Source: Elusimicrobiota bacterium
Lineage (GTDB): Bacteria; Elusimicrobiota; Elusimicrobia; UBA1565
NCBI GenBank assembly: GCA_043819795.1
Contig: JBDREN010000032.1
Coordinates: forward strand, 1 to 42,926
Length of the DNA stretch: 42,926 nt
Reading direction: 5' to 3'
Shown here: in pieces, positions 20,418-42,926 of the stretch
Layout of the letters: each line of letters begins with the position of its first letter
Numbering within the stretch: position 1 is the first letter of the stretch
Program-made: the position numbers and the translations under genes
Notes under the pieces: model-generated
Databases searched by the model: none
Told to the model about the DNA's origin: nothing
What the model saw: only the letters and a program-made list of their open reading frames with translations

Positions 20418-21248
20418 ATGGCCCTCCACCTGCCCATCAACGCCGACTGCAACCTTCGCTGCGTGTTCTGCTCCGCCGCGGGAAGAAACGGCGACTTCCA
20501 GCTGAGCTCGCTGATCGCGATGATCGACGAGGACCAGACCGGGCACGTGCAGATATCAGGCGGGGACCCCATGCTCAAGGACCCGCTCGAGCTGCTGGAG
20601 ATCCTGCTGCGCTGCCGCAAGAAGAAGAAGCTCATCGAGCTCCAGACCAACGCCCTGCTGGTCCCCGCCTACGACGCCAAGCGGTTCCGGCTGATCGCGG
20701 GGCTGGTGGACTACTTCAACGTCAATCTCTCCGCCCACACGCCGGAGCTCGACGAGGCCGTGACGGGCGCGGCGGGCGGCTTCGAGAAGCGCCTCGACGG
20801 GGTTCGCCGCATGCTCTCGCACGGCGCGCCGGTCCGGCTCACCTACGTCGTCTGCCAGGCCAACTACCGGCACTGCGTGGACTTCGCCGACTTCGTGGCG
20901 TGCGAGCTCAAGGGCGTGGAGTGGATCCAGTTCAGCTTCGTGAAGGGCGTGGGCCGGGCCAGGGGGAGCGCCCGGATCATCCCGCGCTTCCGCGAGGCGG
21001 CGCCGCACCTCAACGAGGCGCTCGCCTTCTGCCGCGACAGCGGGATCCGGTTCGAGGTGGACCACATCCCGGTCTGCTTCGTCCGGGAGTTTGAAGACAA
21101 CCACGTCGACTACCGCAAGATGCTCGCGGAGCAGCCGGGGGCGCATCTCGCCGAGAAGCAGCGGGTCGCCGACTGCGACGGCTGCTCCCTGCGTTTGTGG
21201 TGCCCCGGTCCCCGCAAGGACTACATCGAGCTCTACGGGGAGCTCTGA
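20418..21248 (+). CDS. Radical SAM protein (HxsC-like)
   Basis: CNLRCVFC, ISGGDP, QTNA, DHIPVC; C-terminal CDGCSLRLWCPG. Confidence 0.85.
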   Translation: MALHLPINADCNLRCVFCSAAGRNGDFQLSSLIAMIDEDQTGHVQISGGDPMLKDPLELLEILLRCRKKKKLIELQTNALLVPAYDAKRFRLIAGLVDYFNVNLSAHTPELDEAVTGAAGGFEKRLDGVRRMLSHGAPVRLTYVVCQANYRHCVDFADFVACELKGVEWIQFSFVKGVGRARGSARIIPRFREAAPHLNEALAFCRDSGIRFEVDHIPVCFVREFEDNHVDYRKMLAEQPGAHLAEKQRVADCDGCSLRLWCPGPRKDYIELYGEL

Positions 21249-22522
21249 TGCCGTCCTCCCCCTCGACCGAGACGCTCGACGTCGGGGCTTTGCGCGCCCA
21301 TTACCCGGCCCTCGACAACCGCGTGGACGGCAAGCGCCTCGTCTATCTCGACAGCGCCTGCACCGCGCTCAAGCCCCGCTGCGTGGCCGAGCGTCTGGGG
21401 GAGTTCTACCTGAACTGGGGCGGCTGCGGCGGCAAGCGTTCGACCCACCTGCTCTCGCAGCGCGTCGAGGAGTGGTTCCAGGACGCCCGCCGCGAGACGG
21501 CCGACTTCCTGGGCGCCGAGCGCGCCGAGGAGATCGTTTTCACCTCCGGGACGACCGAGGCGGTCAACCTCGTGGCGCGCGCCTTCCCGTTCGAGGGGGA
21601 CCGCCGCGAGGTGGTGTTGACCGACATGGAGCACAACAGCGTGCTCCTGCCCCTGCTCGAGCTCGAGAAGCGGGGCGAGGCCTCGCTCAAGTTCTGCCCG
21701 GTGAAAGGGGGGCAGCTCGACCTAGAGGCCATGGAGCGCCTCATAACGCGCCGGACCGCCCTGGTGGCCGTGGCGCGCTCCTCCAACGTGCTGGGCGGGC
21801 TGTTTCCCGTCGCGCGGGTCGCGCGCATGGCCCGCTCCCGGGGAGCCCGCATCCTCGTGGACGACGCGCAGTACCTTTCCTCGCACCGGGAGGACGTCCG
21901 GGAGACCGACGCCGACTTCGTGGCCTTCTCCTCGCACAAGCTCGGCGGGCCCTTCGGGGTGGGGGTGCTCTACGGCAAGGAGAACCTTCTCAACCGCCTG
22001 GGCGTCTATAAGGTCGGGGGCGGGACGGTGAAGGACGTGTCGTGGAACGGCTCCGGGGCGGAGGCCGTCTATTTGGACGCGCCCATGCGCTTCGAGGCCG
22101 GCGTCCAGGACCTGGCGGGCGTGGCGGCTTTCGGGGACGCTCTGCGTTTTTTCAGGGCGATCCCGGAACGGGCCTTGCGGGCCCACATCGCGGGCCTGGT
22201 GCGCCGGACCGCGGAGGGCGTCGCGCGCTTCGAGGAGGTAGGGCTCCTCGGAGAGATCGAGGACCTGGAGCGGGGCTCGATCGTCTCGTTCGCGCCGAGG
22301 CATCCGGGCTTCTCGATCGCCGATTTCAACCTCTACCTCAACCACGAGCTCGACGGCCGCTTCATCGCCGTGCGGGCGGGCGAGCACTGCGCGCATCTGC
22401 TGCACCACAAGCTGGGCGTCCCCGGCACGGTCCGGGTCTCGTTCTTCGCCTACAACACGTTGGAGGAGGCGGACTTGTTCCTGGACGCGCTGGGGGGCTA
22501 CATCCGGGAGGCGTGCCGGTGA
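21248..22522 (+). CDS. PLP-dependent cysteine desulfurase, SufS-like (class V aminotransferase)
   Basis: YLDSACTALKP, FTSGTTEAVN, MEHNS, DDAQ, SSHK (PLP Lys), RAGEHCA (SufS-type catalytic Cys), RVSFFAYNT; TGATG overlap with the upstream gene. Confidence 0.9.
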   Translation: MPSSPSTETLDVGALRAHYPALDNRVDGKRLVYLDSACTALKPRCVAERLGEFYLNWGGCGGKRSTHLLSQRVEEWFQDARRETADFLGAERAEEIVFTSGTTEAVNLVARAFPFEGDRREVVLTDMEHNSVLLPLLELEKRGEASLKFCPVKGGQLDLEAMERLITRRTALVAVARSSNVLGGLFPVARVARMARSRGARILVDDAQYLSSHREDVRETDADFVAFSSHKLGGPFGVGVLYGKENLLNRLGVYKVGGGTVKDVSWNGSGAEAVYLDAPMRFEAGVQDLAGVAAFGDALRFFRAIPERALRAHIAGLVRRTAEGVARFEEVGLLGEIEDLERGSIVSFAPRHPGFSIADFNLYLNHELDGRFIAVRAGEHCAHLLHHKLGVPGTVRVSFFAYNTLEEADLFLDALGGYIREACR

Positions 22523-23817
22523 AGCGGGACGGCGCCCTCGACCGGGAGGGGGGGGCGGGCGCGCCCGCCGAAGACGCGGCCGCCGAGCGCAGCGGCCGCG
22601 AGGCCTTCGACGAGCCGAAGTGCTTCGACATCCTGCTCCACTACGCCTGCCAGGCCAAGTGCCTGTTCTGCTCGCAGGACTTCGGCTGGCGCGAGGAGCC
22701 CAACCTCATGCCATTCCGGGCGGCGGCGGAGAAGATCTTCTGGGCCCACCAGCACGGCTTCCGGCGTCTGGGCTTCACGGGCGGCGAGCCCACGCTGCGC
22801 AAGGACCTGGCCAAGCTCCTCGTCCTCGCGCGCAAGGTGGGCTTCACGTACACCCGCATCCAGACCAACGGGGTCCGGCTCGCGGACCCGGACTACGCCG
22901 GCGCGCTCGCGGACGCGGGTCTCACCTTCGTCAAGCTCTCGGTCCACGGCCACGACGCCGAGACCCACGACGGCCTGGCGGGGATGCCAGGCTCCTTCGA
23001 CGCCTGCCTGAAGGCTATCGAGAACCTCAAGAGGCTCAAGATCGGGGTCGGCGTCAACATCGTCCTCAATAAGCGCAATTATCAACGCCTGGTCGAGTTC
23101 TACGAGCTGTTCTTGCTCAAGCTGCGCCTGTCGAACTTCGTCATCATCGCGCCGCTCTACGAGGGGAACATGACGCGGAACGTCGCCGGGATGGGCGCGC
23201 GGCTGACGGACATGGCGTCCCACATCAGGCGCGCCTACGAGGTGTTCGAGAGGATCGACTTCCCGAAGCCGCCGCTCCTGCTGCATTTCACCCCGTGCGT
23301 CCTTCCCGGCTACGAGCAGCAGATGCTCGGCTGGTCGTCCTTCAACACCATGGTCGTCAATCCCGACGGGGAGCAGAAGGACCTCGACGAGACGATGACG
23401 CAGCACACGGTCAAGACCAAGGCCTGCCGGGCGTGCGTGTACAACGACCGCTGCATCGGGCTCGACAGGAGCTACGCCGAGCGCTTCGGCACCGGCGAGC
23501 TCTCGCCGCTCAAGGCGGTCCCGGAGCGCTACGGCCGGGCGCGGCGGGGCGAGGGGCCGCACGAGGGGCGGCCGGTGCTGACCGACAACGAGACCTGCGC
23601 GATCGAAGTGCTCAAGCACAAGAGCGGCGTGAGCACTTCGGAGTTCCTGAGGATCGCCGAGCGCTTCCCAATCTGCAAGGACTGCGGCGACGAGAACGCG
23701 GTGATCAACGCGGCGGAGACTTTGATCAAGATGGGGCTGGTGAAACGGCGGTTCCAAAAGGGGAAGTACGTATGGTCGCTGCAAGAGGCGGCGCTGCGGG
23801 CGAGCGTCTTCAGCTAA
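22519..23817 (+). CDS. Radical SAM protein (HxsC-like) with extra C-terminal domain
   Basis: CQAKCLFC, FTGGEPT, IQTNG, FTPC, CRACVYNDRCIG; C-terminal extension with ICKDC and a helix-wing-like end; GTGA overlap. Confidence 0.88.
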   Translation: MKRDGALDREGGAGAPAEDAAAERSGREAFDEPKCFDILLHYACQAKCLFCSQDFGWREEPNLMPFRAAAEKIFWAHQHGFRRLGFTGGEPTLRKDLAKLLVLARKVGFTYTRIQTNGVRLADPDYAGALADAGLTFVKLSVHGHDAETHDGLAGMPGSFDACLKAIENLKRLKIGVGVNIVLNKRNYQRLVEFYELFLLKLRLSNFVIIAPLYEGNMTRNVAGMGARLTDMASHIRRAYEVFERIDFPKPPLLLHFTPCVLPGYEQQMLGWSSFNTMVVNPDGEQKDLDETMTQHTVKTKACRACVYNDRCIGLDRSYAERFGTGELSPLKAVPERYGRARRGEGPHEGRPVLTDNETCAIEVLKHKSGVSTSEFLRIAERFPICKDCGDENAVINAAETLIKMGLVKRRFQKGKYVWSLQEAALRASVFS

Positions 23818-24005
23818 GCCTCCGGGGCGGCACGAGCCTCTGGCTCGCCGGCGGGGGAGGCATCTTCGGCCTGCCCGCCGAGGTCGTCGAGAAGGGCCGG
23901 CCGGAGCTCTCGGGAGCGGGCATCGCGGAGGGCCTGGACGAGACGCGCCGCGCGCTCGACAAGCTGGCGGACTACGAGATCGATATGGAGGCGCTGTGCG
24001 CGTGA
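23772..24005 (+). CDS. Small hypothetical protein (77 aa)
   Basis: Fills the 23817-24002 gap; protein-like composition (…GLDETRRALDKLADYEIDMEALCA); TGA overlaps the next GTG; start uncertain. Confidence 0.45.
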   Translation: MVAARGGAAGERLQLSLRGGTSLWLAGGGGIFGLPAEVVEKGRPELSGAGIAEGLDETRRALDKLADYEIDMEALCA

Positions 24006-25021
24006 ATGCGGGCCCCGGGTCGAAGCGCCGGGAGAGGGAGGCCCCCCGAGGGAGGATACAGAAGCTGGTCATCTTCACCGGCTTCTCGTGCAACAACCGA
24101 TGCCGCTTCTGCATCGACATGCACAAGCGCGACATCCCCGACAAGACGACCCAGCGGATCGTGCGCGAGATGGCCGACGCCAAGTCCCAGGGCGTCGAGT
24201 ACCTCGAGATGATCGGCGGGGAGACGACTATCCGCGGCGACTTCCTGCCCCTGGTCCGCACGGCCCGGAAGCTCGGCTTCGAGCGCGTCGTCGTGGCGAC
24301 CAACGGGCGGATGTTCTCGTATCCCGAGTTCGCGAAGCGGACCCTGGATGCCGGCGTGACCGACCTGATCTTCTCGATTCACGGCCACGACGCACGGCTG
24401 CACGAGGCCATGACTTCCGTGCCGGGGAGCTTCGCGGAGCTTCTCAAGGGAGTCGAGAACCTGCGGGCTCTCGGCTTCAAGCGTATCAACGCGAACTGCA
24501 CGGTGGTCAAGCCCAACATGGGGAGCCTGCCCGACATCGGGAGGCTGCTTCTGAGGCTCGGGATCCGCAACGCCGAGCTCATCTTCGTGGACCCCAACAT
24601 CGGGGGGGCCAACTCGGACTTCGGCGGGCTCGTCCCGCGAATCTCTGAGGCCGCGCCCTTCATGCGCGAGACGCTCGACGTCGGCCGCGCGGGCGGCACT
24701 CGCCACTGGACCGCGCGGTACGTGCCGTTGTGCCGCTTCGCGGGTTACCTGGATCAGATTTCGGAGATCCGCGAGGTTTCCGTATTCCATACGCGCCATT
24801 GGGCGCCGGATTTCAAGAACGAGGACGTGTCCGCCTCGCGGGCCTCCGCCGGAAGGATGAAGACGGAGCGCTGCGCCGGGTGCGCGCTCCACGGGGCCTG
24901 CGAGGGGCTCTGGAAGGAGTACCTCGATCGCTACGGCGACGCGGAGCTCGTCCCGGTCGAGGGGCCGGTTGAGATCCCGGACTGGCGGAAGCTGCCAGGG
25001 GCTGGAAACAACGACCGATGA
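24002..25021 (+). CDS. Radical SAM protein (HxsC-like)
   Basis: CNNRCRFC, IGGETT, ATNGRMFSY, YVPLC, CAGCALHGACEG; GGAGG RBS. Confidence 0.88.
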   Translation: MNAGPGSKRREREAPRGRIQKLVIFTGFSCNNRCRFCIDMHKRDIPDKTTQRIVREMADAKSQGVEYLEMIGGETTIRGDFLPLVRTARKLGFERVVVATNGRMFSYPEFAKRTLDAGVTDLIFSIHGHDARLHEAMTSVPGSFAELLKGVENLRALGFKRINANCTVVKPNMGSLPDIGRLLLRLGIRNAELIFVDPNIGGANSDFGGLVPRISEAAPFMRETLDVGRAGGTRHWTARYVPLCRFAGYLDQISEIREVSVFHTRHWAPDFKNEDVSASRASAGRMKTERCAGCALHGACEGLWKEYLDRYGDAELVPVEGPVEIPDWRKLPGAGNNDR

Positions 25022-25046
25022 AACGACGATCCGCCCCCGCAACGAT

Positions 25047-25078
25047 GCGCAATCCCTCCCCGCGGGGGAGGGATGCGC
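25047..25078. repeat. Strong GC-rich inverted repeat in an intergenic gap
   Basis: GCGCAATCCCTCCCC-GC-GGGGGAGGGATGCGC near-perfect hairpin. Confidence 0.7.
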
Positions 25079-25099
25079 GCATGGAGGGACGCGGGTAAC

Positions 25100-26065
25100 A
25101 TGCCCGACTTCTCCATCTGGCCTCAGTGCAACATCGGCTGCGTGTTCTGCTCGAACCCCGCCAAGGGGTTCCGGCGGACCACGGACAAGTACTCCTACGC
25201 GGAGATCGCCCGTAAGGTCGAGAAGTACAAGCGGGGGCTCAAGACCTTCGTGAAGTTCGACAGCGTGCGCGACTACTTCAACCTGACCGGCGGCGAGCCG
25301 ACGCTGCACCCGGAGTTCCTGAGGATCGTCGCGCACATCCGCCGCGAGTTCCCGAAGGGCCTCATCCGCGTGCTCTCCAACGGCCGCATGTTCGCCTACG
25401 AGGACTTCGCCCGGCGGACCCTGGGCATCGGCATGTCGCCTTTCGAGGTGGCGGTCCCGGTATTCGGCTACGACGCGAGGACCCACGAGAGCGTCTCTCG
25501 CGCGCCGAAAAGCTTCGAGCAGACGGCCCGGGGGCTCGAGAACCTACGCCGCCACCGCGCGGAGGGCCAGCGGATCGAGCTCCGGATCATCCTGACGAAG
25601 ATCCAGATGCGCTCGCTCGACGGCCTGCTCGACTATGTCCTCGCCGAGCTTTCCTGGGTCGACAGGGTGGTGCTGCTGTTCGTGGAGCTGGAGGGTTTCG
25701 CCGAGCTCTATCGCGGGCAGGTCGCCTTGACGATGAGCGAGTGCGCCGCCCGCCTCGACCGCAATTACGCCAAGCTCCGCCGGCTTCCCCAGGCGCGGCT
25801 CTACCATTTCCCGCTTTGCGTATTGCCGCCGCGGCTGTGGCCCTTCGTCTACAACACGCTGGACTCCTTCAAGGTCACGCACCTGGAGCGCTGCCGCAAG
25901 AGCTGCATGTACCGCGAGGCGTGCGTGGGCGTTCACCGCAGCTACGAGAAGCACATGGGGGCGCCCGACATCCGGCCGCTCACCGAGCCCCAGCCGGTCG
26001 AGCTTTCCGGCAACCGCTACCATCCGGTCTGCGGGGTGAGGATGGAGACCCCGAGCTATGGTTAA
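25100..26065 (+). CDS. Radical SAM protein (HxsC-like)
   Basis: MPDFSIWPQCNIGCVFC, LTGGEPTLHP, LSNGRMF, HESVSRAPKSF, LYHFPLCVLP, CRKSCMYREACVG. Confidence 0.88.
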   Translation: MPDFSIWPQCNIGCVFCSNPAKGFRRTTDKYSYAEIARKVEKYKRGLKTFVKFDSVRDYFNLTGGEPTLHPEFLRIVAHIRREFPKGLIRVLSNGRMFAYEDFARRTLGIGMSPFEVAVPVFGYDARTHESVSRAPKSFEQTARGLENLRRHRAEGQRIELRIILTKIQMRSLDGLLDYVLAELSWVDRVVLLFVELEGFAELYRGQVALTMSECAARLDRNYAKLRRLPQARLYHFPLCVLPPRLWPFVYNTLDSFKVTHLERCRKSCMYREACVGVHRSYEKHMGAPDIRPLTEPQPVELSGNRYHPVCGVRMETPSYG

Positions 26066-26486
26066 GGTGTCCTTGGGCCCCGCGGCCGACCGCGTGGCGG
26101 CCTACGGCGCGGCCCACGCCATGACGCATCGCGCCTACGCGGCGCTCGCGCGCGAGGGCAAGGATACCGTCGTGTGCCTTTGGCCCAAGCCGGGCCGGGG
26201 GGGGCGGCCCGCCATGGACGCGCGCGCCCTCGAGCGCGCCTGCCGGCTCGAGTACGAGAACCAGCTCCACCGGTGGGAGATCGCGCGCAACAACGAGTCG
26301 GTGCGCGCGCAGATCGCGCGCCGCATGCTGGACCTCGCCGGGGGCGTGCGGGGCGAGGGCGGGGTGCGGGTCGTGGAGCGGCTCGCTCCCGAGCAGGAGG
26401 CCGCGATCGAGCGCCTGCTCGAGGAGGCCGGGAAGGGGCCCAAGGACCCGCTCGGCATCGCCACGCCCTGGGGGGGCGCGAAGTGA
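26058..26486 (+). CDS. HxsD-like protein
   Basis: AAHAMTHRAY corresponds to the AAYxLTDRAY motif of 28274 and 31463; C-terminal DPLGIATPW motif. Confidence 0.7.
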   Translation: MVKVSLGPAADRVAAYGAAHAMTHRAYAALAREGKDTVVCLWPKPGRGGRPAMDARALERACRLEYENQLHRWEIARNNESVRAQIARRMLDLAGGVRGEGGVRVVERLAPEQEAAIERLLEEAGKGPKDPLGIATPWGGAK

Positions 26487-26932
26487 GGCCGATGATCGAC
26501 GCCGCCGGCGGAGAGGCGGTCGTCCGTCTTCCGAAGGCGTTCTACGAGAAGGCGAGCCTCAAGGCCGCGGCCGACGCCTTCGTGGGGCGGGCGAAGATCG
26601 GGCTGCTGCAGGGCGAACGGGGCGAGCATCGCGTCCTGCTGCGGCCGTCCCGGAGGAAGCTCTTTGATCGCGCCTTCCGCCGGGATCGAGAAGGCCTGCT
26701 CGCCCTGGCCGGCGAGTTCATCAACGAGGCGCTCAGCCACCAGCTCCGCCAGGAAGTGATCCGCTTCAACAACGGCCTGACCGCGCCGGTGCTGGGCCGG
26801 CTTTACGAGAAGGGCTTTCTCTGCGTACCGTGGGACCCGCTCGAGGAGATGGACCGGGGCCTGGCCGGGCGGCGCGGTGCCGAGACCGAGGCGCTCATCG
26901 AAGAGGCCATCCGCATGGGGCGCCGCCGATGA
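26483..26932 (+). CDS. HxsD-like protein
   Basis: LPKAFYEKASLKAAADAF...LAGEFINEALSHQLRQ, matching the EF.NE.L...LR helix of HxsD; GTGA overlap. Confidence 0.7.
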   Translation: MRPMIDAAGGEAVVRLPKAFYEKASLKAAADAFVGRAKIGLLQGERGEHRVLLRPSRRKLFDRAFRRDREGLLALAGEFINEALSHQLRQEVIRFNNGLTAPVLGRLYEKGFLCVPWDPLEEMDRGLAGRRGAETEALIEEAIRMGRRR

Positions 26933-28272
26933 GCTCCAAGCTGACCTGCCTCAAGGAGCTGCCGAAGCTCGACCGCCGCAGCGTCGGCCCGCACCGCTAC
27001 CGTGCGCTCGGCGACAAGGTCCTTGTGACCGGCGATGCCGGGCACTACGCGTTCCTCTCTCCCGGGGAGTACCGCGCGTACCTGCGCGGGATGGACGAGG
27101 GGCATCCGCGCTTCGAGGAGCTGCGCCTCAAGGGCTTTATACGCCACTACATGGAGTTCGACCTCATCGCTTCGGAGGCGCTCGAATCGAGCCTGCTGAG
27201 CTGGGAGGGAGCGAAGAACCACGTGGTCTTCCTGGAGCGGGGCGGGGTCCGCATGGACCCCGATACGGCTCGCGAGGCCGTGGACTTTATCTTCACCGTG
27301 CCCGGCCCGGTGGTGCAGATCGAGATGGTCGCCGGGGACGTCGACGCCTGCTGGCCCGCGGTCTGGCTGCTGGTCCGTTACGCGCGGCGCCGGGCCGAAT
27401 GGAACTCCCGGCTCCTGCGGCTCTGGCTGCGGACCGGGCCCGAGGGTCCGGAGCCGAAGAAGCTCAAGTTCCTCCTCGATCATTCGGTCGGCCTCCGCGT
27501 GGCGTTCGACGGCGCCGCCGGGCCGGGGCGCAAGCCGGCGTGGCGGCGCAAGGTCTCGGAGGCCAGAAGACGCGCGGAGGACATGCCCATGCCTCGCGCG
27601 CTCCTGCGCGTGGCGGCGCGGACGACGCGCCCCCGCGCCTGGGTGGAGCACTGGAAGAGCCTGGGCTGCGGCTCGGTGCGCCTGGCGCCCTCGCCGGAGC
27701 TTCTCGACGAGGGGCGCCTGGAGCCTTTCCTGGATTTCTACGCGCGCGCGCTCGACCGCATGATCGCCGAGCCCGAGCCGGCCCTCCGCGAGGAGTGGGC
27801 CGCGGCGTTCCTGCGCCGCGTGCCTCCCGAGGCTCACCTGCCGCGCGAGGAGCGCGGCGGCCCGCTTCCGGGGCACGACGTGGTCGGCGAGCTGGCGTAC
27901 AGCCCGGAGGGGGGCATCTTCACCAATTCCAACGGGCTCGATCTCGCGCGCAAGGATATGCCGGTCTTCAAGCTCGGCATCGTCGAGAAGACGGCCTACG
28001 AGGAGTTCCCGGACAAGGACCTCGTCCGGCTCAGCCTGGCTGCGCTGGAGGGTGCGCATCAACCGCTCTGCTTCCATTGCGCCTACAAGCCGTACTGCGC
28101 CGTGGCGCCGTCGCAGAACATGCTCGCGCAGGGCTCGTTCTGGGGGCAGATCCCATCGAGCCCGCACTGCGCGGCGCAGATGGGCGTGCTCGACATCCTG
28201 TTCGAGCGGCTCAAGCGCCCCCGGAGCCGGGAGGTCCTTCTGGAATGGACGCATCAATGGAGTTACCTCTGA
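26929..28272 (+). CDS. HxsB paralog lacking the radical SAM CxxxCxxC motif
   Basis: Aligns by eye to HxsB (VTGDAGH, LKGFIR, AVDFIF, LAYSPEGGIFT, CFHCAYKPYC, HC..MGVLDILFERL), but the CxxxCxxC loop is missing and GGE is replaced by AGD. Confidence 0.82.
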   Translation: MSSKLTCLKELPKLDRRSVGPHRYRALGDKVLVTGDAGHYAFLSPGEYRAYLRGMDEGHPRFEELRLKGFIRHYMEFDLIASEALESSLLSWEGAKNHVVFLERGGVRMDPDTAREAVDFIFTVPGPVVQIEMVAGDVDACWPAVWLLVRYARRRAEWNSRLLRLWLRTGPEGPEPKKLKFLLDHSVGLRVAFDGAAGPGRKPAWRRKVSEARRRAEDMPMPRALLRVAARTTRPRAWVEHWKSLGCGSVRLAPSPELLDEGRLEPFLDFYARALDRMIAEPEPALREEWAAAFLRRVPPEAHLPREERGGPLPGHDVVGELAYSPEGGIFTNSNGLDLARKDMPVFKLGIVEKTAYEEFPDKDLVRLSLAALEGAHQPLCFHCAYKPYCAVAPSQNMLAQGSFWGQIPSSPHCAAQMGVLDILFERLKRPRSREVLLEWTHQWSYL

Positions 28273-28273
28273 G

Positions 28274-28939: not shown

Positions 28940-29373
28940 CCAAGCTCACGGTGTCGAAGAGGGTCTATTCGGAGGAGGCGCTCAAGCTCGCCGCGAACGT
29001 CTTCTCGCGGCGCGCCCAGGCGGAGTTCGCGGAGGCCGAGAATGGCTGGGAGGTGACGCTCCTGCCGCGGTCCCGGCGCGCATCCAAAGGGGGCCGGGTA
29101 CGGCGCCCCCCCGGGGTCGACGCCGGTCCGCGGGCGCGCGGCTTGGCGGAACTCAAGGCCCTCGAAGGGGAATTCCTCAACGAGCTCTTGAGCCAGGAGT
29201 ACCGCGTCCTCGTGAGCGGCTTCAATAAGCGCATCGCCGGGGTCCTCGTGACCCAGGCGCTCTTCTCCGCGCGGGGGGGCGAGAACCCTCCGAAGCCGCC
29301 GAAGGAGTCCGCGGCTTTCAAGAAGGAGGCCGCCAAGCTGCTGCGGGAAGCGAAGGAGGAGACCCATGGCTGA
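28936..29373 (+). CDS. HxsD-like protein
   Basis: VSKRVYSEEALKLAANVF...LEGEFLNELLSQEYR; ATGA overlap. Confidence 0.72.
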   Translation: MTKLTVSKRVYSEEALKLAANVFSRRAQAEFAEAENGWEVTLLPRSRRASKGGRVRRPPGVDAGPRARGLAELKALEGEFLNELLSQEYRVLVSGFNKRIAGVLVTQALFSARGGENPPKPPKESAAFKKEAAKLLREAKEETHG

Positions 29374-34851: not shown

Positions 34852-34886
34852 GATGGCGGGCGACGGGCCCGCCGGGGTGTGCGGAC

Positions 34887-35966: not shown

Positions 35967-37111
35967 TCGCCTTCGAGGTGGGGCTCGGCTACGGCTGCGG
36001 GGTGAAATGCCGCTTCTGCGCGCAGAAGCGCGAATGGCGGCGCATCCCCCCCCTGCCCTTCGATCTCATCGCGCGGCAGATGTACATGGCCCACGCGGAC
36101 GGCTACCGGAGCGTCTGCTTCACCGGGGGCGAGCCCACGCTCTACAACGACCTTCCGAAGATGGCGGCGCTGGCCCGGCGCATCGGGTTCACCTACATCC
36201 GGGTGCAGTCCAACGGCATGCGGCTGGCCGATCCCGCCTACGCGGGGCGGCTCATCGACGCCGGAGTGAACTTCTTCCGGGTCTCGGGCCACGGACACAC
36301 GGCGGAGCTGCACGACTGGCTCGTGCAGACGCCCGGCGCCCTGGAAAGGCTCTTCGCGGCGGCGGAGAACATCCGCTCGCGCGGCGTCGAGGTCGGCGTC
36401 AATTTCCTGATCAACGCCAGGAACCACGCGACGCTCCCCGAGTTCTGCGACGAGTTCCTCGGCCGGGGCTTCACCGATTTCGTGATCGTCTACCCGCTTT
36501 ACGAGGGCGACCTGGCGGAGAACGCCGGGGAGCTGGGCGTGCTCATGGCGGAGGCGGCGCGCGGCTTGCGGCGGGCGCTCGAAGTGTTCGACCGCCGCCG
36601 AGCGGACTATCCGAGAGTGCTCAACTTCACGCCGTGCGCGGCGCCGGACCTGATCCCGATCATGGTGGCGTGGTCGCCGCATTCCTCCATCATGGCGGGC
36701 GGCGACGGGGTCCCCGCGGACTTCTACGTGGCCGCCAACGAGTCCCGCGTCAAGACCGCCGCGTGCCGGGGATGCGCGTTCGGCGCGGAGTGCCGGGGCT
36801 TCAACGCCGGCTACCTGAAGCGCTTCCCGGACGAGGGGCTGGGGGCGGTGGCTTCGGAGCACGAGGGCGCGGCCAAGGTCGCGCGTCGGCTGGGCGGTCG
36901 CCGCATCCTGCGCGCCGGCGACGCCTTCTTCGACGAGGAGCGGCGGGAGGTCGCCCGGCTGGTGCAGCCCCTGGTGGACCAGGAGGTGTGCAAGACGGAG
37001 GTCCAGGTCGAGCGGATGGCGCTGGCGTTCGACGCGGAGGAGAGCGGGCTCGTGCAGCAGCGCTCCGTATGGCGCGAACCTCTGTCTTCGAAGGAGGCGG
37101 CACGTGCCTGA
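35963..37111 (+). CDS. Radical SAM protein (HxsC-like), paralog of 22519 and 34887
   Basis: YGCGVKCRFCAQKREWR, FTGGEPT, VQSNG, PLYEGDL, NFTPC, CRGCAFGAECRG; ATGA overlap. Confidence 0.88.
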   Translation: MIAFEVGLGYGCGVKCRFCAQKREWRRIPPLPFDLIARQMYMAHADGYRSVCFTGGEPTLYNDLPKMAALARRIGFTYIRVQSNGMRLADPAYAGRLIDAGVNFFRVSGHGHTAELHDWLVQTPGALERLFAAAENIRSRGVEVGVNFLINARNHATLPEFCDEFLGRGFTDFVIVYPLYEGDLAENAGELGVLMAEAARGLRRALEVFDRRRADYPRVLNFTPCAAPDLIPIMVAWSPHSSIMAGGDGVPADFYVAANESRVKTAACRGCAFGAECRGFNAGYLKRFPDEGLGAVASEHEGAAKVARRLGGRRILRAGDAFFDEERREVARLVQPLVDQEVCKTEVQVERMALAFDAEESGLVQQRSVWREPLSSKEAARA

Positions 37112-38126
37112 CGCGCCTTTCTGGCAGAAGTGCAACAGCCACTGCGTGATGTGCACGAACTCCGACGCGTACATCAACGAGCCCGACGCGAGGTACGGGC
37201 TCGCCAAGCACCTGCGCAAGATCGCCGAGTTCAAGGCGGACCCGGGCGACCGTAACGTGTACTACCAGAACGGCGAGCACGGCGGCTACTTCCTCTTCAC
37301 CGGGGGGGAGCCCACCCTCAACCCCGATTTCCTGCGCCTTCTCGCCGAGTACCGGAAGAGCTTCCCAGGGACGCCTATTACGCTTCTGACCAACGGGCGG
37401 CTCTTCTGCTACGAGGACTTCGCCCGGGAGACGATGCTCGCCGGCGGGAACCCGTTCGAGGTGGCGGTCGCGGTCCACGGCCCGGACGCCGCGGCGCACG
37501 ACGCGGTCACCCGGACGCCGGGCAGCTTCGCGGAGACCGTCGAGGGGCTCGGACACGCGCTCAAGCACCGCGGCCCGGGGCAGGCCGTGGAGATCCGCGT
37601 GGTCCTGCACCGGCGCACCGCCGGGATGCTCGAGCGCACTTTGCGTTTCCTCCTCGAGACCTTCCCGGACGCCTCGGGCTACCGCCTCACGCTCGTCTAT
37701 TTCGAGGCCGAGGGGCAGGCCGCCAAGAACTTCGAGCGCATCCGGATCACGCTCACGGACTGCGCCGCGCGCGTCGCCGCTTGCCGCGGCCTGCTGGGAC
37801 GGTTCCGGGAGCTGCGCCTCTACCATTTCCCCCTGTGCGTGCTCCCGGAGACGCTCTGGCCGCACGCGTGGCGCTCGCTGCCGCGCTACGAGATCATGCA
37901 CGTGAAGGCATGCGGCGCGTGCGCGCTCAACGACGTGTGCGTGGGGCCCCACGATTGGTACGCGGAGCGCTTCGGCGTCTCCGAGTTCAAGCCGTTTCAG
38001 GCCCGGCGCAGCCTGGTCTTGAGCGGGAACCCCTTTCACCCCATCGCCTCCGTCGGCGAGGGGACCGTTCCCTGGACGCCCGCGCGGGTCGTCGACGAGA
38101 AGAAGGATGAGGCCGTACGCTGGTAG
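37104..38126 (+). CDS. Radical SAM protein (HxsC-like), paralog of 25100
   Basis: MPDAPFWQKCNSHCVMC, FTGGEPTLNP, LTNGRLF, HDAVTRTPGSF, LYHFPLCVLP, CGACALNDVCVG; AAGGAGG RBS. Confidence 0.88.
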   Translation: MPDAPFWQKCNSHCVMCTNSDAYINEPDARYGLAKHLRKIAEFKADPGDRNVYYQNGEHGGYFLFTGGEPTLNPDFLRLLAEYRKSFPGTPITLLTNGRLFCYEDFARETMLAGGNPFEVAVAVHGPDAAAHDAVTRTPGSFAETVEGLGHALKHRGPGQAVEIRVVLHRRTAGMLERTLRFLLETFPDASGYRLTLVYFEAEGQAAKNFERIRITLTDCAARVAACRGLLGRFRELRLYHFPLCVLPETLWPHAWRSLPRYEIMHVKACGACALNDVCVGPHDWYAERFGVSEFKPFQARRSLVLSGNPFHPIASVGEGTVPWTPARVVDEKKDEAVRW

Positions 38127-38138
38127 AGGAGGAGCATC

Positions 38139-39623
38139 GTGAGCCGCGTCACTAAGAAAGCCAAGGCCGGGAAGATAACAGCGGGGACCTACGACGCCAT
38201 CGTGTTCGGGGGCGGGCCGGCGGGCAGTACGGCCGGGAACCTCCTGGCGCACAAGGGATACCGAGTGCTGGTCATCGAGAAGGACCGCTTCCCCCGCCAC
38301 CACATCGGGGAGTCCCTGCTTCCGGGTCTCAACTCGCTCTACCGGCGCCTGGGCGTTGAGAAGCGTCTCATGCGCTCGAATTTCTTCCTGAAGACCGGCG
38401 GCACCTACATCTGGGGACCCACGCGCAAGCCCTGGTCGATCTGGTTCATGGACCTGAGCGAGGCCCCCACGTACCTGGACGAGCGGAGCCAGACCTGGGC
38501 CTACCATGTGGACCGGGACCGCTTCGACAAGATCCTCCTCGACCAGTGCGCCCGGCGAGGGGCCGAGGTGGTCCAGCCCGCGCTCGTGAAGGACGTGGGC
38601 ATGCGCGGCAGGACGATCACGCACGTGGACTACGCGACGGAGGATGGGAAGACGCATCGCGCGCGGGCCAAGTTCTACTTCGACGCGACGGGCCTGGCGG
38701 GGCTGATGGCCCGCAAGATGCGCTGGCGCGTCTTCGAGAAGCAGCTGCGGCACATCGCGGTCTACTCCTACTTCGAGGGAGCGCGCCTGCTGCCCGGCGA
38801 GCACCGCTACCAGATCTTCGTGGTGAACAACCCCGACGGCTGGATCTGGTACATCCCGCTGGCCAAGAACCGCGTGAGCGTGGGGGTCGTGACCTCATCC
38901 AAGCGCCTCGCCGAGGCCAAGAAGGACATGGCGGGCTTCCTCATGCGCAGCATCGAGCGCGCCCCCGAGGTGGCCAAGCTCCTCAAGCGCGCCAAGCGGA
39001 CCCAGCCCATGCGCATCGACCGGGACTGGTCCTACTGCGCTCGCCGGTTCATCGGCGACAACTTCCTTTTGATCGGCGACGCGGCGTCCTTCATCGACCC
39101 GCTGCTCACCTACGGGGTGGCCATGGCCATGCACGCGTCGGCGCTCGCGGCCGACTGCGTGGACCTAGCCCTGCGCGAGCCCAAGCGGGGCAAGGAGTTC
39201 CTGGAGCACTTCGAGAAGGTGCACCGTCACCGCTACAAGGACATCCTCGACTTCGTGAAGTTCTTCTACAGCGGCAACCGCCAGCGGAAGGAGTATTTCT
39301 GGAAGGCCCGGCGGATCCTCAACTATCCGGGCAACAGCTACGCGAAGTACGCCTTCACGTTCATGGCCTCGGCGCACTACCTCTGGAAGTCGTACCTGTA
39401 CGTGGCCTACTTCCGGCAGATCTTCCAGCCGATCGGCCTGCCCGTCGAGCGCCTGCGCAAAGACCGCAAGTTCCTCGAGGAGGTCAAGCGGATCCGCACG
39501 ATGGACCTGGCGTTCATCGACGAGCCCCTGCTGCGGCCCGGGGAGAGGCGGTCGCTGGTGGCCGAGGAGGCGAAGTTGGCGAGGCTCGTGGAAAAGGAGG
39601 TCAAAAGGCGGATGCGCCGATGA
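38139..39623 (+). CDS. Flavin-dependent halogenase
   Basis: GGGPAG FAD motif, FPRHHIGESL, FFLKTGG (candidate catalytic Lys), GWIWYIPL (WxWxIP), GDAASFIDPL; GAGGAGGAG RBS. Confidence 0.87.
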   Translation: MSRVTKKAKAGKITAGTYDAIVFGGGPAGSTAGNLLAHKGYRVLVIEKDRFPRHHIGESLLPGLNSLYRRLGVEKRLMRSNFFLKTGGTYIWGPTRKPWSIWFMDLSEAPTYLDERSQTWAYHVDRDRFDKILLDQCARRGAEVVQPALVKDVGMRGRTITHVDYATEDGKTHRARAKFYFDATGLAGLMARKMRWRVFEKQLRHIAVYSYFEGARLLPGEHRYQIFVVNNPDGWIWYIPLAKNRVSVGVVTSSKRLAEAKKDMAGFLMRSIERAPEVAKLLKRAKRTQPMRIDRDWSYCARRFIGDNFLLIGDAASFIDPLLTYGVAMAMHASALAADCVDLALREPKRGKEFLEHFEKVHRHRYKDILDFVKFFYSGNRQRKEYFWKARRILNYPGNSYAKYAFTFMASAHYLWKSYLYVAYFRQIFQPIGLPVERLRKDRKFLEEVKRIRTMDLAFIDEPLLRPGERRSLVAEEAKLARLVEKEVKRRMRR

Positions 39624-40576
39624 GGACCGACGAGTGCTTCGAGTGGGCCCGGCGGCACCATGGCCTCGGGCGGACCAGGGCCGTGGAAGAGGTCCGCGCG
39701 GTCCTGGACGCCCTCGCGTCCAGCGCGCCGCCGGGGCGGCTGGCCACGAACCATTTTCAGGCGTGCCTCAACGACCGGGACCTGTTCGGGGTCGTGAAGC
39801 TGGTTCATGTGGCTGAGCCACCGGCGCCCCCCCCGCGGGGGGGCGCCCATGTAGGGGGGGCTGATTTGGTTCTTGGCCGCCGCAAGGCTCTGCGCGCGGT
39901 CTTCCGCCGGCTCAACCGGGAGCGCGGCACGCGCTTCGACGACTCTTTGCTCGACCGGGTCTACGGGGCCATCGTCGAGGGCGGGGCCGGGGGCTGGTAT
40001 CCGATCTTCGGCTTCGAGTTCCATCCCGACGGAGAGCTGTTCCCCGAGATCAGCCTCTACGCCGAGCATCGCGCGCCGCAGGCGGCTCTCGCGGCCGCCC
40101 GGGCCATGCCCGGCGTGGACGTCGCGCGGGTGGAGGGCCAGCGGGACCGGATTTTCGCCCTCGGTCTCGACTTCCTCGCGGACGGGGGGGCGCGGTTCAA
40201 GCTCTATCTGGACACGGAGCCGGCCGCGGCGGCCGGACTCCTGCACGAGCTCGACGCCCGGCTTCATCCGGCCCGGTCGCTCACCTTGCTGCGCACGCGG
40301 CCCGAGGGAGGGTTCGAGGAGCGGAGCAAGGCCTATGTCCCGCTCCAGGCTCGGGAGCCCGGGCGGATCACCGATCTGGCCGGCGAGGATTTTCCAAACG
40401 TCGCGCGCGGCCGCCTGCTCGCGTTCGCCCGGCGCGTGGCCCGGGCGGTATACGGCTACCACCTGTTCTATATCGGCGCTTCGGAGGAGAAGATCGAGGT
40501 CTATTTCGGCAGCGGCAACCCCGTGGGCGATCCCATGATCCGCCGCGCGGCCGAGGCCCGGGAGTCCGGAAGGTGA
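39620..40576 (+). CDS. Hypothetical protein, possible ABBA/PT-barrel (cyanobactin F-like) prenyltransferase fold
   Basis: ATGA overlap; repeated beta-strand motifs FGFEF..EISLY, ALGLDF..ARFKLY, YIG..KIEVYF; paralog of 40573. The CDS is well supported; the fold call is tentative. Confidence 0.6.
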   Translation: MRTDECFEWARRHHGLGRTRAVEEVRAVLDALASSAPPGRLATNHFQACLNDRDLFGVVKLVHVAEPPAPPPRGGAHVGGADLVLGRRKALRAVFRRLNRERGTRFDDSLLDRVYGAIVEGGAGGWYPIFGFEFHPDGELFPEISLYAEHRAPQAALAAARAMPGVDVARVEGQRDRIFALGLDFLADGGARFKLYLDTEPAAAAGLLHELDARLHPARSLTLLRTRPEGGFEERSKAYVPLQAREPGRITDLAGEDFPNVARGRLLAFARRVARAVYGYHLFYIGASEEKIEVYFGSGNPVGDPMIRRAAEARESGR

Positions 40577-41520
40577 ACGCCACCGACATCCTGAACTGGA
40601 CGCGGCATCACTACGGGGCCGCGGTCCGCCCCATCATGCGGGACTTGGAGCGGCAGATCGACCTGCTCACGAGCGCGGGCGGGGAGGGCGTGTTCATCCT
40701 CGAGTTCTTCGAGGCGGCGATGAACAACCACGACCTCTTCAACCGCGTCAAGCTCGTGCACGTGGCGCAGTTCTACGAGCAGATCCGGGAGCAGCGCAAG
40801 CGCGAGATCGCGCGGCGCCGCCGGCAGTGCCTCCGCGAGATCTTCGACAAATGGGGAATGAACCCGGAGCCGCTCGAGCGCATGTACGACCACGTCTTCG
40901 CCCACGGGCTCCACACCTATTACCCGGTCGCGAGCGTGGAGTGGGACGTGCCCTCGGGGAAGTTTCAGGAGGTGAGCATCTACACCGAGACCGACTGCGC
41001 GCGCGTCGCGGCCGCCATCGCCAGAGGCCTGGGGGTGCCCAAGAAGGGCCTGGCGCGCACGCTCGGGCTCGACCGGATGTTCGCGGTGGGCTACGATTTC
41101 CGTCCCGGCAAGCCAAGCCGCTTCAAGCTCTATCATACCCATCCCCTCACAGTGGAACGCCTGCGCCGCTACTCCTCGGCCAAGCCGTACTTCACCATGC
41201 CGAAACGGATGCTCCCGAAGGAGTACCTCGTGCTCAAGCGCAAAACCGAGGGGGAGGACTTCGAGGACACGCGGAAGGTGTACCTGCCGTACCTGGCCCG
41301 GCGGTCGATCAACGAGGGGCACACGATCTTCGGGATGGCCGCCCATTGCCGGAAGGGCATACTGAAGGATTTCTTCAAGAACATCCGCCACACGGCCGAC
41401 GGGACGTTCCTCGACTATATCGGCTGTGAGGGCACCAAGATCGAGGTCTATTACGGGAAGCCGTCTTTGGGCTGGTCGGAGGAGTCGTTCAAGTCCGGCC
41501 GCGCCATGAGGGGGATATAG
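40573..41520 (+). CDS. Hypothetical protein, paralog of 39620 (possible ABBA prenyltransferase fold)
   Basis: Shared motifs W.R.H.G, N..DLF..VKLVHVA, YP...E...E.S.Y, FA.G.DF....RFKLY, K.Y.P, YIG...KIEVY.G; GTGA overlap. Confidence 0.6.
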   Translation: MNATDILNWTRHHYGAAVRPIMRDLERQIDLLTSAGGEGVFILEFFEAAMNNHDLFNRVKLVHVAQFYEQIREQRKREIARRRRQCLREIFDKWGMNPEPLERMYDHVFAHGLHTYYPVASVEWDVPSGKFQEVSIYTETDCARVAAAIARGLGVPKKGLARTLGLDRMFAVGYDFRPGKPSRFKLYHTHPLTVERLRRYSSAKPYFTMPKRMLPKEYLVLKRKTEGEDFEDTRKVYLPYLARRSINEGHTIFGMAAHCRKGILKDFFKNIRHTADGTFLDYIGCEGTKIEVYYGKPSLGWSEESFKSGRAMRGI

Positions 41521-41522
41521 CC

Positions 41523-42926
41523 GTGGACATCATCCGGGACCTATCGAAGATCGTGGGCAAGTCGCGCGTCACGATCGCGGACAGCGTCGTCAGGGAGTTC
41601 TCGCGCGACTTCGCCAAGTACGACATGGGCAAGGCCCGCGCGGTCGTCCAGCCGGTCACCGAGGAGCAGGTGGTCCAGCTCGTACGCTGGGCGCGCAAGA
41701 CCAAGATCCCCCTGGTGCCCGTGGGCTCGCGCTCGAGCTTCTGGGGCGCCACCAAGGTCGGAGGGCGCGTCGCGGTGGATATGCGCGGCATGAACCGCGT
41801 GCTGAGCATCGACGAGACGGAGGGGATCGTCCGCGCTCAGGCCGGCATACAGATCTCGGAGCTCGACGCCATCCTCCGCAGGAGGGGCTTCTACCTGCCG
41901 ATGTGCCCCGACGGCTTCGGGGACCCGGTGCTCGCCTCCATGATCGCCAACGACACCATCGCGGGGCTCGGGATGTTCAACGCCCCGGGCTCGGCCCTTT
42001 TCGTCACCATGAACGCCGTGCTGGGCACGGGCGAGGTCTTCCGGTTCCCGGGCTCCTCGCACGTCATAGGGCTGCCCGACTACGCGCGCGACGGCTTCCC
42101 GGACATGTCGAGCGTGTTCTTCGCCTCGGAAGGCGCTTTCGGGATCATCACCGAGATGTCGATGCGCTTCGCCGGGATCCCCGTGACCCGAACCTGCGTG
42201 CTCAGCTTCCCTCCCGGGCTCGACGGCTTCCGCCGCATCCTCGACGTGGGCATGTCGCTGCGGGGCCAGCCCATATGCACGTACTGGCGCAACCATTCCT
42301 GGATCTCCATGCAGGCGGATACGGTGGAGATCGAGGTCGCCGGGCGGCCGGAGGAGGTGGGCGTGAAGGTCCGCCGCCTGCAGAAGGCCTGCCGGGACGG
42401 GGGGCTGCAGGAGCCCCAGGTGCTCCTGGAGGAGCCTCCGCGCTGGGAGGAGCGGCCGCGCGACAGCGAGCATTGGATGGGGGTCTCGATGCACGTGCCC
42501 TTCACCCACGCCGAGCGGATCTACTCCCTCTGGCTCGACCGCTTCCGCGGAAGGATGTCGGCCATCGCGCAGCCCGACGGCTTCCTGAGGTGGTACATCG
42601 GGGCGGGAGGGATGGCGGCCCTGTTCGCCTGGAACTACACTCCGGGCGACGCGCAGATGGCGGCCAGCATCGCCCTAGCCGACGAGATCCGCGAGACCGT
42701 CTCGGAGTTCGCCTTCCCCTACCGCATCGGGACGGTATGGCGGCCGAACCTGGAAGGGCGGCTCGATCCGCTGTACTGCCGGATCATCAAAGAGCTCAAG
42801 GACATGTTCGACCCCGACAACATCCTGAACCCGGGAGTCGGGATCTTCGACCTGGCCCCCGCCGGCGCCGTCGCCGGCCGAGCCCTGCGCGGCAGGCGCA
42901 AGCCCACGCCGCTTCCTCGGCCCCGG
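41523..42926 (+). CDS. FAD-binding oxidoreductase (GlcD/VAO family), 3' end runs off the window
   Basis: Not in the ORF track because it has no stop. Translates as (M)DIIRDLSKIVG..AVVQPVTEEQV..IPLVPVGSRSS..VDMRGMNRVLSID..AQAG..FASEGAFGIITE..LKDMFDPDNILNPG. Confidence 0.88.
   Translation, partial: MDIIRDLSKIVGKSRVTIADSVVREFSRDFAKYDMGKARAVVQPVTEEQVVQLVRWARKTKIPLVPVGSRSSFWGATKVGGRVAVDMRGMNRVLSIDETEGIVRAQAGIQISELDAILRRRGFYLPMCPDGFGDPVLASMIANDTIAGLGMFNAPGSALFVTMNAVLGTGEVFRFPGSSHVIGLPDYARDGFPDMSSVFFASEGAFGIITEMSMRFAGIPVTRTCVLSFPPGLDGFRRILDVGMSLRGQPICTYWRNHSWISMQADTVEIEVAGRPEEVGVKVRRLQKACRDGGLQEPQVLLEEPPRWEERPRDSEHWMGVSMHVPFTHAERIYSLWLDRFRGRMSAIAQPDGFLRWYIGAGGMAALFAWNYTPGDAQMAASIALADEIRETVSEFAFPYRIGTVWRPNLEGRLDPLYCRIIKELKDMFDPDNILNPGVGIFDLAPAGAVAGRALRGRRKPTPLPRPR

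Follow-up and report, generated by a model that had tools for sequence, protein, structure and literature searches.

Positions 20418-42926 of contig JBDREN010000032.1 from an Elusimicrobiota bacterium (assembly GCA_043819795.1) carry a real, conserved and much expanded variant of the His-Xaa-Ser (HXS) system, whose core probably works like HXS. The window analysed here is the whole contig (C32; 42,926 nucleotides) of a 4.99 Mb assembly that is 90% complete. The locus encodes the precursor peptide HxsA, the radical S-adenosylmethionine (SAM) enzyme HxsB, further radical SAM enzymes, HxsD-like proteins and a set of tailoring enzymes. The 23 genes probably form one expanded pathway making an exported, multiply crosslinked HxsA peptide of the cell envelope, which would probably also be prenylated and halogenated. 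The tight gene junctions, the full collinearity with contig C43 of a related genome (G001) and the presence of the front block of the locus in 13 other genomes argue for one conserved pathway. A sequence-only reading of the window had proposed an elaborate variant that makes a heavily modified His/Ser-rich peptide, and with 23 of 23 genes collinear on G001:C43 this is the best reading of the locus.

Layout, conservation and extent of the locus

The locus comprises 23 genes and one remnant of 77 amino acids (aa), all encoded on the + strand (Table 1). With the remnant, which the sequence-only reading did not list, counted in, 16 of the 23 junctions are overlaps and 20 are at most 15 bp long; the co-oriented, overlapping gene run described earlier was recovered with all its parts. 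A scan for promoters and terminators yielded no promoter and 10 terminators, compared to 10.5 in shuffled sequences. Our own gene calling on the assembly gave 3807 genes, 60 of which encode a CxxxCxxC motif. Eight of these are among the 23 genes of the locus, many more than chance would give (binomial 5e-10, a descriptive value for a region picked post hoc), and all eight match Pfam Radical_SAM above the cut-off, which agrees with the HxsB and seven further radical SAM enzymes predicted from the sequence.

All 23 genes have collinear orthologs on G001:C43 with 38-80% identity (B*11, named as in Table 1, was found via tblastn). The front block C1-SufS-C3-C4-C5 is collinear with at least 55% identity in 13 other genomes from six genera and two families and also on one named contig, which is possibly a duplicate of one of the 13 genomes. 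The sample for this comparison consisted of 60 contigs from 49 genomes, chosen around precursors or partner genes and not at random. The additional genes thus accompany hxsA and hxsB in other genomes. The paralogs are 22-43% identical among themselves but 56-74% identical to their own orthologs. An AbiEi-type toxin-antitoxin-like pair (L022:3615-5391) is located inside the orthologous cluster of G001:C43, beside a shortened B*11.

Relatives of the precursor were found in 38 of 61 genomes of the order. With a profile of the leader, a precursor was detected in 84 of 401 genomes of the phylum, nearly all of which belong to three families (7/9, 34/48 and 41/47); of the two largest families sampled, one gave 1/118 and the other 0/89. 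G015, a member of the same family, has flanking genes in common with this genome, and the genomes of family f2 share flanking genes among themselves. A search of viral contigs with one pattern revealed no precursor relative, and PADLOC (2023) returned nothing beyond generic matches to the viperin and DndA/SspA superfamilies. The regions within 20 kb of 41 precursor loci encode a median of nine CxxxCxxC proteins, and 39 of the 41 have at least four (unrelated neighbours are perhaps included); 38 of these regions have HxsB, 17 the SufS variant, 16 an A24-like protease and 11 a halogenase-like gene. An expanded locus is therefore the norm in this lineage.

The last gene, coding for an FAD-linked oxidase, is cut by the end of the contig; its orthologs are 442-451 aa long. 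In G001 it is followed by genes for tetratricopeptide repeat (TPR) proteins, FG-GAP/UnbV proteins, a third prenyltransferase and a protease, and the present assembly has its best matches to these genes on contigs C208 and C4. This order is repeated in G004 and G015. The cluster had been expected to run past the window. Since the window is the whole contig, what is seen directly is a gene cut by the assembly, and the gene order makes contigs C208 and C4 the probable continuation of the locus. The end of contig C32 does not overlap in sequence with any other contig, and the contigs of two DNA runs from one sample gave short pieces and no bridge over the contig end or the repeat. Contig C208 (76-21017) encodes two further paralogs of the FAD oxidase along with eight TPR-rich proteins, partly duplicated; one of these paralogs is fused to TPRs and is 61% identical to the oxidase of the window.

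A second His-Xaa-Ser system is located on contigs C120 (67271-77987), C96 (20801-27153) and C4 (161-2091). Contig C120 encodes an HxsA, an HxsD, an HxsB with the motif Cys replaced, two B12 radical SAM proteins and an A24-like protease, and contig C96 an HxsD, an HxsB and an HxsC-like protein; a tetrapyrrole-methylase-TPR fusion and a thioredoxin-reductase-like gene are also part of it. Its precursor has an SGT tail and more repeats than the HxsA of the window. The claim of a single precursor thus holds for the window but not for the genome. Because the second system has its own HxsA, enzymes may be shared between the two precursors.

Precursor, radical SAM enzymes and tailoring enzymes

The HxsA precursor consists of a Lys-rich N-terminus, the motif FLxSEEG, a hydrophobic stretch of 13 residues, a linker, seven tandem His-x-Ser triads and a terminal Phe, and it ends one residue past the repeats. 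The mean hydropathy of the hydrophobic stretch is 1.76, with values of 1.8-2.6 in 19 precursors. In all 19 precursors F, S and E of FLxSEEG as well as LGxxG are invariant, and the last residue of the leader motif is Gly in 16 and Ala in three. Canonical HxsA and HxsA2 were not recognised by the leader profile (E 0.23 and 1.9, respectively). The number of triads ranges from seven here to about 40 in relatives, although assemblies mis-count such repeats; precursors with about 37-40 triads are found in L008, L104 and others. The tails after the repeats vary by locus type (FSF, CRGGWCxPRC, SGT, GQW, GAW, GSW, GSY, GGWC), and the FSF tail is found in the four genomes whose precursor sits with or near the module of three prenyltransferases. 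The tail type tracks the accessory enzyme set.

An A24-like membrane protease is a candidate for the leader protease of HxsA, as suggested by its co-occurrence with the precursor: it was found in all 38 precursor-positive genomes and in four without precursor, while 19 of the 61 genomes have neither. Of the 38 positives, 26 were not used for building the profile; the genomes are kin and not independent, and no P value is given. Asp26 and Asp104 are invariant in 13 of 13 proteins, and 11 of 14 match PF01478 at E < 0.05, one of them at the cut-off. In G035 the locus is unbroken from C1 to the A24-like protease, spanning about 46 kb. HxsA as a Flp-like pilin was considered and rejected, as there is no Flp_Fap match and no Flp pilin in the genome. 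No precedent for an A24-type leader protease of a peptide that is made ribosomally and modified after translation (RiPP) was found in our literature search.

HxsB is 35-39% identical to three annotated HxsB proteins and scores 480.5 with TIGR03978 (cut-off 370). Its Cys pattern is that of two of the three canonical HxsB proteins compared, and the idea that it has specifically lost one auxiliary cluster was rejected, since the HxsB proteins of Novosphingobium and Nostoc show the same pattern. The seven other radical SAM enzymes have HxsC or HxsC4 as best NCBIfam match, all of them below the cut-off; with the HxsC model TIGR03977 (cut-off 267.9), C5 scores 164.9, the best value, and C19 148.8. 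Both are about 100 N-terminal residues shorter than canonical HxsC. A quick tree places C5 and C19 as the sister group of three annotated HxsC proteins (SH-aLRT 99) and C1, C4 and C3/C17/C18 in separate clades with orthologs of their own, those of C1 coming from two families. The SAM motif and four Cys at the C-terminus are retained in all seven; C1 likewise has CxxxCxxC and the auxiliary Cys set at the C-terminus. The seven paralogs likely perform differing radical chemistry on His-x-Ser.

Five HxsD-like proteins had been described, and all five were confirmed with a profile that includes them (E <= 1.4e-33). D13 passes TIGR03976 (52 versus 50) and two others match it weakly; among the remaining two, one shows a weak match to HxsD_rel only and the other has no NCBIfam match. 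A structure model of HxsD gave no Foldseek match at E <= 0.001. Its best Z score is 7.9, and a weak likeness to Rpb11/RpoL-type dimerisation domains is a lead only.

The two degenerate HxsB paralogs are also present. In B*8 and B*11 the CxxxCxxC loop is deleted and GGE is lost, while the auxiliary Cys (CxxCxxxxxC...C) are kept. Orthologs of B*8 are all without CxxxCxxC and GGE and with CxxCxxxxxC (15 of 15). The ratio of nonsynonymous to synonymous substitution rates (dN/dS) of B*8 in three close pairs is 0.23, 0.33 and 0.32 (intact HxsB: 0.09, 0.16 and 0.27), which marks B*8 as a conserved pseudo-enzyme that appears to be under purifying selection. The N-terminal part of B*8 is nearest to intact HxsB (27/63 identical residues versus 50/200 in the core); no model matches it, and from the domain layout we take it to be a leader-binding domain resembling a RiPP recognition element. 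A complex prediction of B*8 with the precursor leader scored 0.01 (mark 0.32). B*11 has lost the loop both in this genome and in G001, but family f2 has an intact gene in that position, and in a quick HxsB tree B*11 is placed between the pseudo-enzyme clade and the intact enzymes.

Two paralogs near the end of the window had been listed as unknown. They are indeed paralogs and have the ABBA prenyltransferase fold. The PT22 model (predicted local distance difference test, pLDDT, 89.3) is a ten-stranded barrel that matches ABBA prenyltransferases with a Foldseek E value of 1.4e-8 and a VIA-align Z score of 17.5 (root mean square deviation 4.3, 285 aligned residues). Nineteen prenyltransferases lead the matches with Z scores of 12.6-17.5, among them the peptide-modifying PagF, PatF, DciF, PirF and LimF; the next fold has a Z score of 6.8, and the Atlas agrees. 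The fold of PT21 is assigned via its homology to PT22 only (29% identity). K60, K185, Y187, R223, K235, Y237 and Y293 are invariant in 19 of 19 family members. K185-x-Y187, R223 and K235-x-Y237 resemble the pattern of AuraA at the level of sequence motifs; in AuraA, such residues bind the diphosphate and shield the cation, according to the accessible text of the report (PMC11696170), which also states that LimF geranylates C2 of His in peptides. A profile of the family did not find PDB sequences significantly (best match DMATS, E 0.53).

The halogenase-like enzyme has GxGxxG, a Lys at the catalytic position and WxWxIP, all aligned to 8ZOP and 3E1T. The flavoprotein maturases QhpG and LodB also match below the cut-off, and the enzyme may catalyse hydroxylation rather than halogenation. 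The SufS variant scores below the TIGR01979 cut-off (325.7 versus 475.1), but aligned to solved SufS structures its pyridoxal phosphate (PLP) Lys, active-site His and catalytic Cys in RxGxHC are invariant in 20 of 20 orthologs. Two extra Cys near the substrate site are likewise invariant in all 20 and are absent from the two solved SufS shown. A SufBCD partner was not found in the 90% complete assembly (no SUFBD match; controls 14/14), and a second desulfurase-like gene is located on contig C139. The secreted protein encoded upstream of hxsA has 14 invariant Cys in seven of seven sequences and no Pfam, NCBIfam or Atlas family; it is homologous to the protein following HxsB in the second locus type (hhalign 96.4%, E 1.2e-9). 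The remnant retains only a C-terminal helix, and its coupling to the next gene persists; G001, G010 and G015 have a full gene of 250-300 aa, without Pfam family, at the same place.

Table 1. Features of the His-Xaa-Ser locus in the window
Feature	Position	Strand	Evidence
Radical SAM C1, divergent HxsC-like	20418..21248	+	Pfam Radical_SAM; TIGR03977 74.8 bits
SufS-type PLP cysteine desulfurase variant	21248..22522	+	TIGR01979 325.7 < 475.1; 20-ortholog alignment; solved SufS structures
Radical SAM C3, HxsC4-like	22519..23817	+	Pfam/NCBIfam, tree; orthologs 65-71% identity
77-aa C-terminal gene remnant	23772..24005	+	15/35 identical, E 7e-8
Radical SAM C4, HxsC4-like	23996..25021 (start perhaps 24002)	+	Pfam/NCBIfam, tree
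Radical SAM C5, canonical-HxsC sister clade	25073..26065 (start perhaps 25100)	+	TIGR03977 164.9 < 267.9; tree; BLAST
HxsD-like D6	26058..26486	+	BLAST to D9; profile; no NCBIfam match
HxsD-like D7	26483..26932	+	BLAST, NCBIfam, profile
Pseudo-HxsB B*8	26929..28272	+	TIGR03978 below cut-off; without CxxxCxxC
HxsD-like D9	28274..28939	+	TIGR03976 33.9 bits
HxsD-like D10	28936..29373	+	TIGR03976 31.8 bits
Pseudo-HxsB B*11	29366..30652	+	TIGR03978 below cut-off; without CxxxCxxC
SRPBCC-fold protein	30765..31466	+	Pfam Polyketide_cyc2 32.7 > 27.4; 60-64% in G001, G010, G015
HxsD D13	31463..31978	+	TIGR03976 52 > 50; model pLDDT 89.5
Intact HxsB	31953..33491 (start perhaps 32016)	+	TIGR03978 480.5 > 370
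Signal-peptide-bearing Cys-rich protein	33488..34510	+	Alignment; hhalign 96.4%, E 1.2e-9
HxsA precursor, 102 aa	34525..34833	+	NF038313 38.7 < 55; leader and His-x-Ser triads
Radical SAM C17 (C3 clade)	34887..35966	+	Pfam/NCBIfam, tree
Radical SAM C18 (C3 clade)	35963..37111	+	Pfam/NCBIfam, tree
Radical SAM C19, second canonical-HxsC sister-clade member	37104..38126	+	TIGR03977 148.8; tree
Flavin-dependent halogenase-like enzyme	38139..39623	+	Pfam Trp_halogenase; solved relatives 8ZOP, 3E1T, CmlS
ABBA prenyltransferase-fold PT21	39620..40576	+	29% to PT22; shared invariant K-x-Y pairs
ABBA prenyltransferase-fold PT22	40573..41520	+	Model, Foldseek, Z score, Atlas
FAD-linked oxidase (VAO/PCMH family)	41523..42926, open at contig end	+	Pfam FAD_binding_4; weak FAD-oxidase_C

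The rest of the contig contains a separate unit of three genes on the - strand (10332-13866), which codes for a ninth CxxxCxxC radical SAM protein (450 aa, with an additional domain at the N-terminus), a membrane protein whose end resembles a Zn finger and a large exported protein. Inspection of the translations showed the small and large subunits of a [NiFe]-hydrogenase-like enzyme together with a maturation protease amid a sensor kinase and response regulators at 1629-9592, possibly an H2-sensing unit. Two short related ORFs lie in a stretch of lower GC content (0.58-0.60) at 16288-17225 and presumably resemble ORF6N-type phage DNA-binding domains. Elsewhere in the assembly, an ORF of 9998 aa with FG-GAP-like stretches was called on contig C19 (2352-32348).

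Proposed pathway and alternative explanations

In the pathway that we propose, the starting point is HxsA with its conserved leader and seven His-x-Ser triads. The leader would be captured by the N-terminal domain of HxsB together with the HxsD proteins; the pseudo-HxsBs, which have kept this domain and the auxiliary cluster Cys, could act as optional non-catalytic adaptors, optional because G015 is without the whole D6-B*11 block. HxsB and the two enzymes of the HxsC clade would then modify the His-x-Ser repeats, as suggested by the E. coli HXS system, where HxsB, C and D are required both for processing at the N-terminus and for a +8 Da change that maps to an SHRSS motif. The five other radical SAM paralogs, from old clades of their own, might add further radical modifications, and the SufS variant might supply sulfur for the many Fe-S clusters or for sulfur insertion. 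With the fold and motifs described above, the prenyltransferase-fold proteins, the halogenase and the FAD oxidase could decorate His or Tyr; a prenyl group would serve the peptide as a membrane anchor. Finally, the A24-like aspartyl membrane protease (encoded on contig C4 or C120) would remove the leader during export, and the Cys-rich secreted protein might receive the product.

Several observations weigh against this pathway or parts of it. The precursor scores below the cut-off of all HxsA models and has no match to TIGR03979. It also has no Pfam match to a peptidoglycan-binding domain, which E. coli HxsA needs according to the accessible text of the report (PMC13128918). The window contains no A24-like gene, the copies being located on contigs C4 and C120, and the link to contigs C4 and C208 comes from synteny in relatives only. 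A class III (prepilin) signal was rejected for the leader, which has two to five charged residues among the 21 after the Gly and Glu+5 in five of 19 precursors. Compared with G001, dN/dS of B*8 is 0.61 (HxsB 0.49), a weak value, and the high GC content limits the estimate. G015 does not have the D6-to-B*11 block, G001 has a truncated B*11 and the window itself contains a gene remnant, which suggests that parts of the locus are dispensable or decaying. The prenyltransferases are present in only six of 61 genomes and could serve another substrate, and, to our knowledge, Phe is not a usual halogenase substrate. The near-core presence in three families and the stable flanks point to a vertically kept trait rather than to a mobile defence island.

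Alternatively, the locus might hold two units, a His-Xaa-Ser system at 20418-38126 and a separate small-molecule module with the halogenase, prenyltransferases, FAD oxidase, SRPBCC and FG-GAP/UnbV proteins, making a halogenated meroterpenoid-type metabolite and leaving HxsA untouched. We consider this unlikely. Although the module is far rarer than the precursor (six versus 38 of 61 genomes), its gene order is conserved in three genera, the gap between the C19 and halogenase genes is 12 bp and the remaining junctions overlap. The best fold matches of PT22 act on free Trp or small aromatics, but the peptide prenyltransferases score in the same range, and distant prenyltransferase homologs adjoin HxsA in G060 and lie within a few genes of it in G031. 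G004 has the module and no precursor was found in its assembly (84% complete, 680 contigs); halogenase-like genes are located within 20 kb in 11 of 41 precursor loci, and no scaffold-building enzyme is encoded among the 23 genes.

It is more improbable still that the product of the locus is related to metals or cofactors, with the His-Gly-Ser repeats acting as a metal sponge in the periplasm or as the scaffold of a new cofactor. A repeat number of 7 to about 40 would suit a dose-type binder, and the SufS variant has extra Cys, but crosslinking of the His would presumably use up the metal ligands, and the enzymes are relatives of HxsB and HxsC, whose sole tested substrate is an HxS protein. NifH/NifD-like genes in other precursor loci of relatives would be in line with the tetrapyrrole-reduction proposal made in the main text on group VI nitrogenase-paralog loci (10.1101/765248). 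In the present assembly, however, two NifH-like proteins of relatives gave no match at E 1e-5 (90% complete, locus cut). That the locus is a decaying pile of duplicated radical SAM genes without joint function is largely refuted, since the remnant, the two loop-less HxsBs, the third HxsB on contig C120 with the motif Cys replaced and the duplicated blocks on contig C208 stand against open frames with 56-74% identity in fixed order across two families, purifying selection even on a pseudo-enzyme and both Cys sets retained in all seven HxsC-like proteins.

As to the role of the proposed single pathway, the leading candidate, though an uncertain one, is by analogy with HXS a barrier in the envelope that hinders phage DNA entry; it is weakened by the near-core, vertically kept distribution. 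An antagonistic or signalling peptide is a somewhat less favoured possibility, some other role is rather unlikely and metal binding is more doubtful again. More speculatively, the locus might belong to a lineage-wide assembly line of 40 or more genes in free-living Elusimicrobia, in which HxsD dimers and dead HxsBs scaffold up to a dozen radical SAM enzymes on poly(His-Gly-Ser), the leader is cut by a dedicated protease of the prepilin type and an envelope peptide, polycrosslinked and anchored in the membrane, is completed by tail-specific cassettes. These cassettes might be prenyltransferases and halogenase for the FSF tail and B12, SPASM or nitrogenase-like enzymes for other tails. If true, a new RiPP class would emerge whose leader protease is intramembrane, and 'group VI' nitrogenase paralogs would gain a peptide context. 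The locus offers small pieces for tests: a 102-residue substrate without folded domain, the seven HxsC paralogs, new ABBA prenyltransferases, the SufS variant, the pseudo-enzymes and the candidate protease.

Comparison with known systems

Radical-SAM-rich loci with up to 13 radical SAM genes per cluster have been described beside group VI nitrogenase paralogs in groundwater Elusimicrobia (10.1101/765248), and a tetrapyrrole substrate has been proposed for them (10.1101/765248; review PMC13474568; accessible parts of both). The main text of the former does not contain the words 'peptide', 'His-Xaa' or 'repeat'; its supplementary Fig. S6, which may show such genes, is outside this scope. Those loci come from the same phylum, and Nif paralogs are also present in some precursor loci of relatives: NifH/NifD-like genes were seen at L028:13485-16109 (G047:C45) and on G005:C9, G027:C4, G034:C10 and G052:C8. 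The present locus offers a peptide-based alternative to the tetrapyrrole reading.

With its ten-stranded ABBA barrel and K-x-Y pairs PT22 resembles prenyltransferases of the DMATS type (CymD, MpnD, AuraA, FunA) and the cyanobactin F type (PagF, PatF, LimF, DciF). Unlike these, the prenyltransferases here have no Pfam family and only 7-15% identity to known members, and no subfamily, donor or acceptor is assigned to them. Like prepilin peptidases, the partner protease has a pair of invariant Asp, and it matches A24 weakly; the last residue of the leader motif is Gly or Ala, but charged residues follow the Gly and Glu+5 is found in only five of 19 precursors, unlike in class III signal peptides as described in the accessible part of PMC4471445.

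The four-gene HXS system, hxsD-hxsB-hxsC-hxsA (TIGR03976-03979), protected E. coli against 110 of 113 phages via delayed DNA entry, as described in the accessible text of Li et al. (Nat Commun 2026, PMC13128918). There, HxsA carries five HxS repeats besides a signal peptide and a peptidoglycan-binding domain that is required; its cleavage depends on HxsB, C and D, HxsC binds HxsD, and the chemistry behind the +8 Da change is described as unresolved and not rebuilt in vitro. More than 99.8% of the surveyed systems have four genes and 99.7% are found in Pseudomonadota. In the accessible part of another report, HxsB and HxsC are named as putative only (PMC9062424). We found no published account of expanded HXS loci in a search that covered few subscription journals. 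Among the NCBIfam models HxsA2, HxsA3, HxsA4, HxsC4 and HxsD_rel, which were compared by model name and score, HxsA4/HxsA3 are the best matches of the precursor and HxsC4 of four radical SAM enzymes, all far below the cut-off. HxsA2 of a Nostoc plasmid (96 aa) likewise ends after the repeats.

The present locus shares with HXS an HxsB and an HxsD above cut-off, two HxsC-sister enzymes, an hxsD directly before hxsB and a precursor whose His-x-Ser triads are in tandem and whose N-terminal segment is hydrophobic. It differs in its 23 or more genes and their order, in Gly replacing the basic residues of the repeats, in HxsC relatives with N-termini about 100 residues shorter, and in a near-core precursor in three families as opposed to the patchy distribution of HXS. 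The pseudo-HxsBs, SufS variant, prenyltransferases, halogenase, FAD oxidase, TPR arrays and A24-like protease have no HXS counterpart. Because neither the gene order nor the peptidoglycan-binding domain of HXS is found here, the locus lies outside the tested four-gene antiphage type. New here are the ABBA fold of the two paralogs, the conserved pseudo-HxsB, the co-occurrence of the A24-like protease and the probable continuation on contigs C208 and C4. Compared to HXS, the locus is a core grown into what may be among the most enzyme-rich peptide-modifying clusters to be expected, and it is kept in most genomes of three uncultured families.

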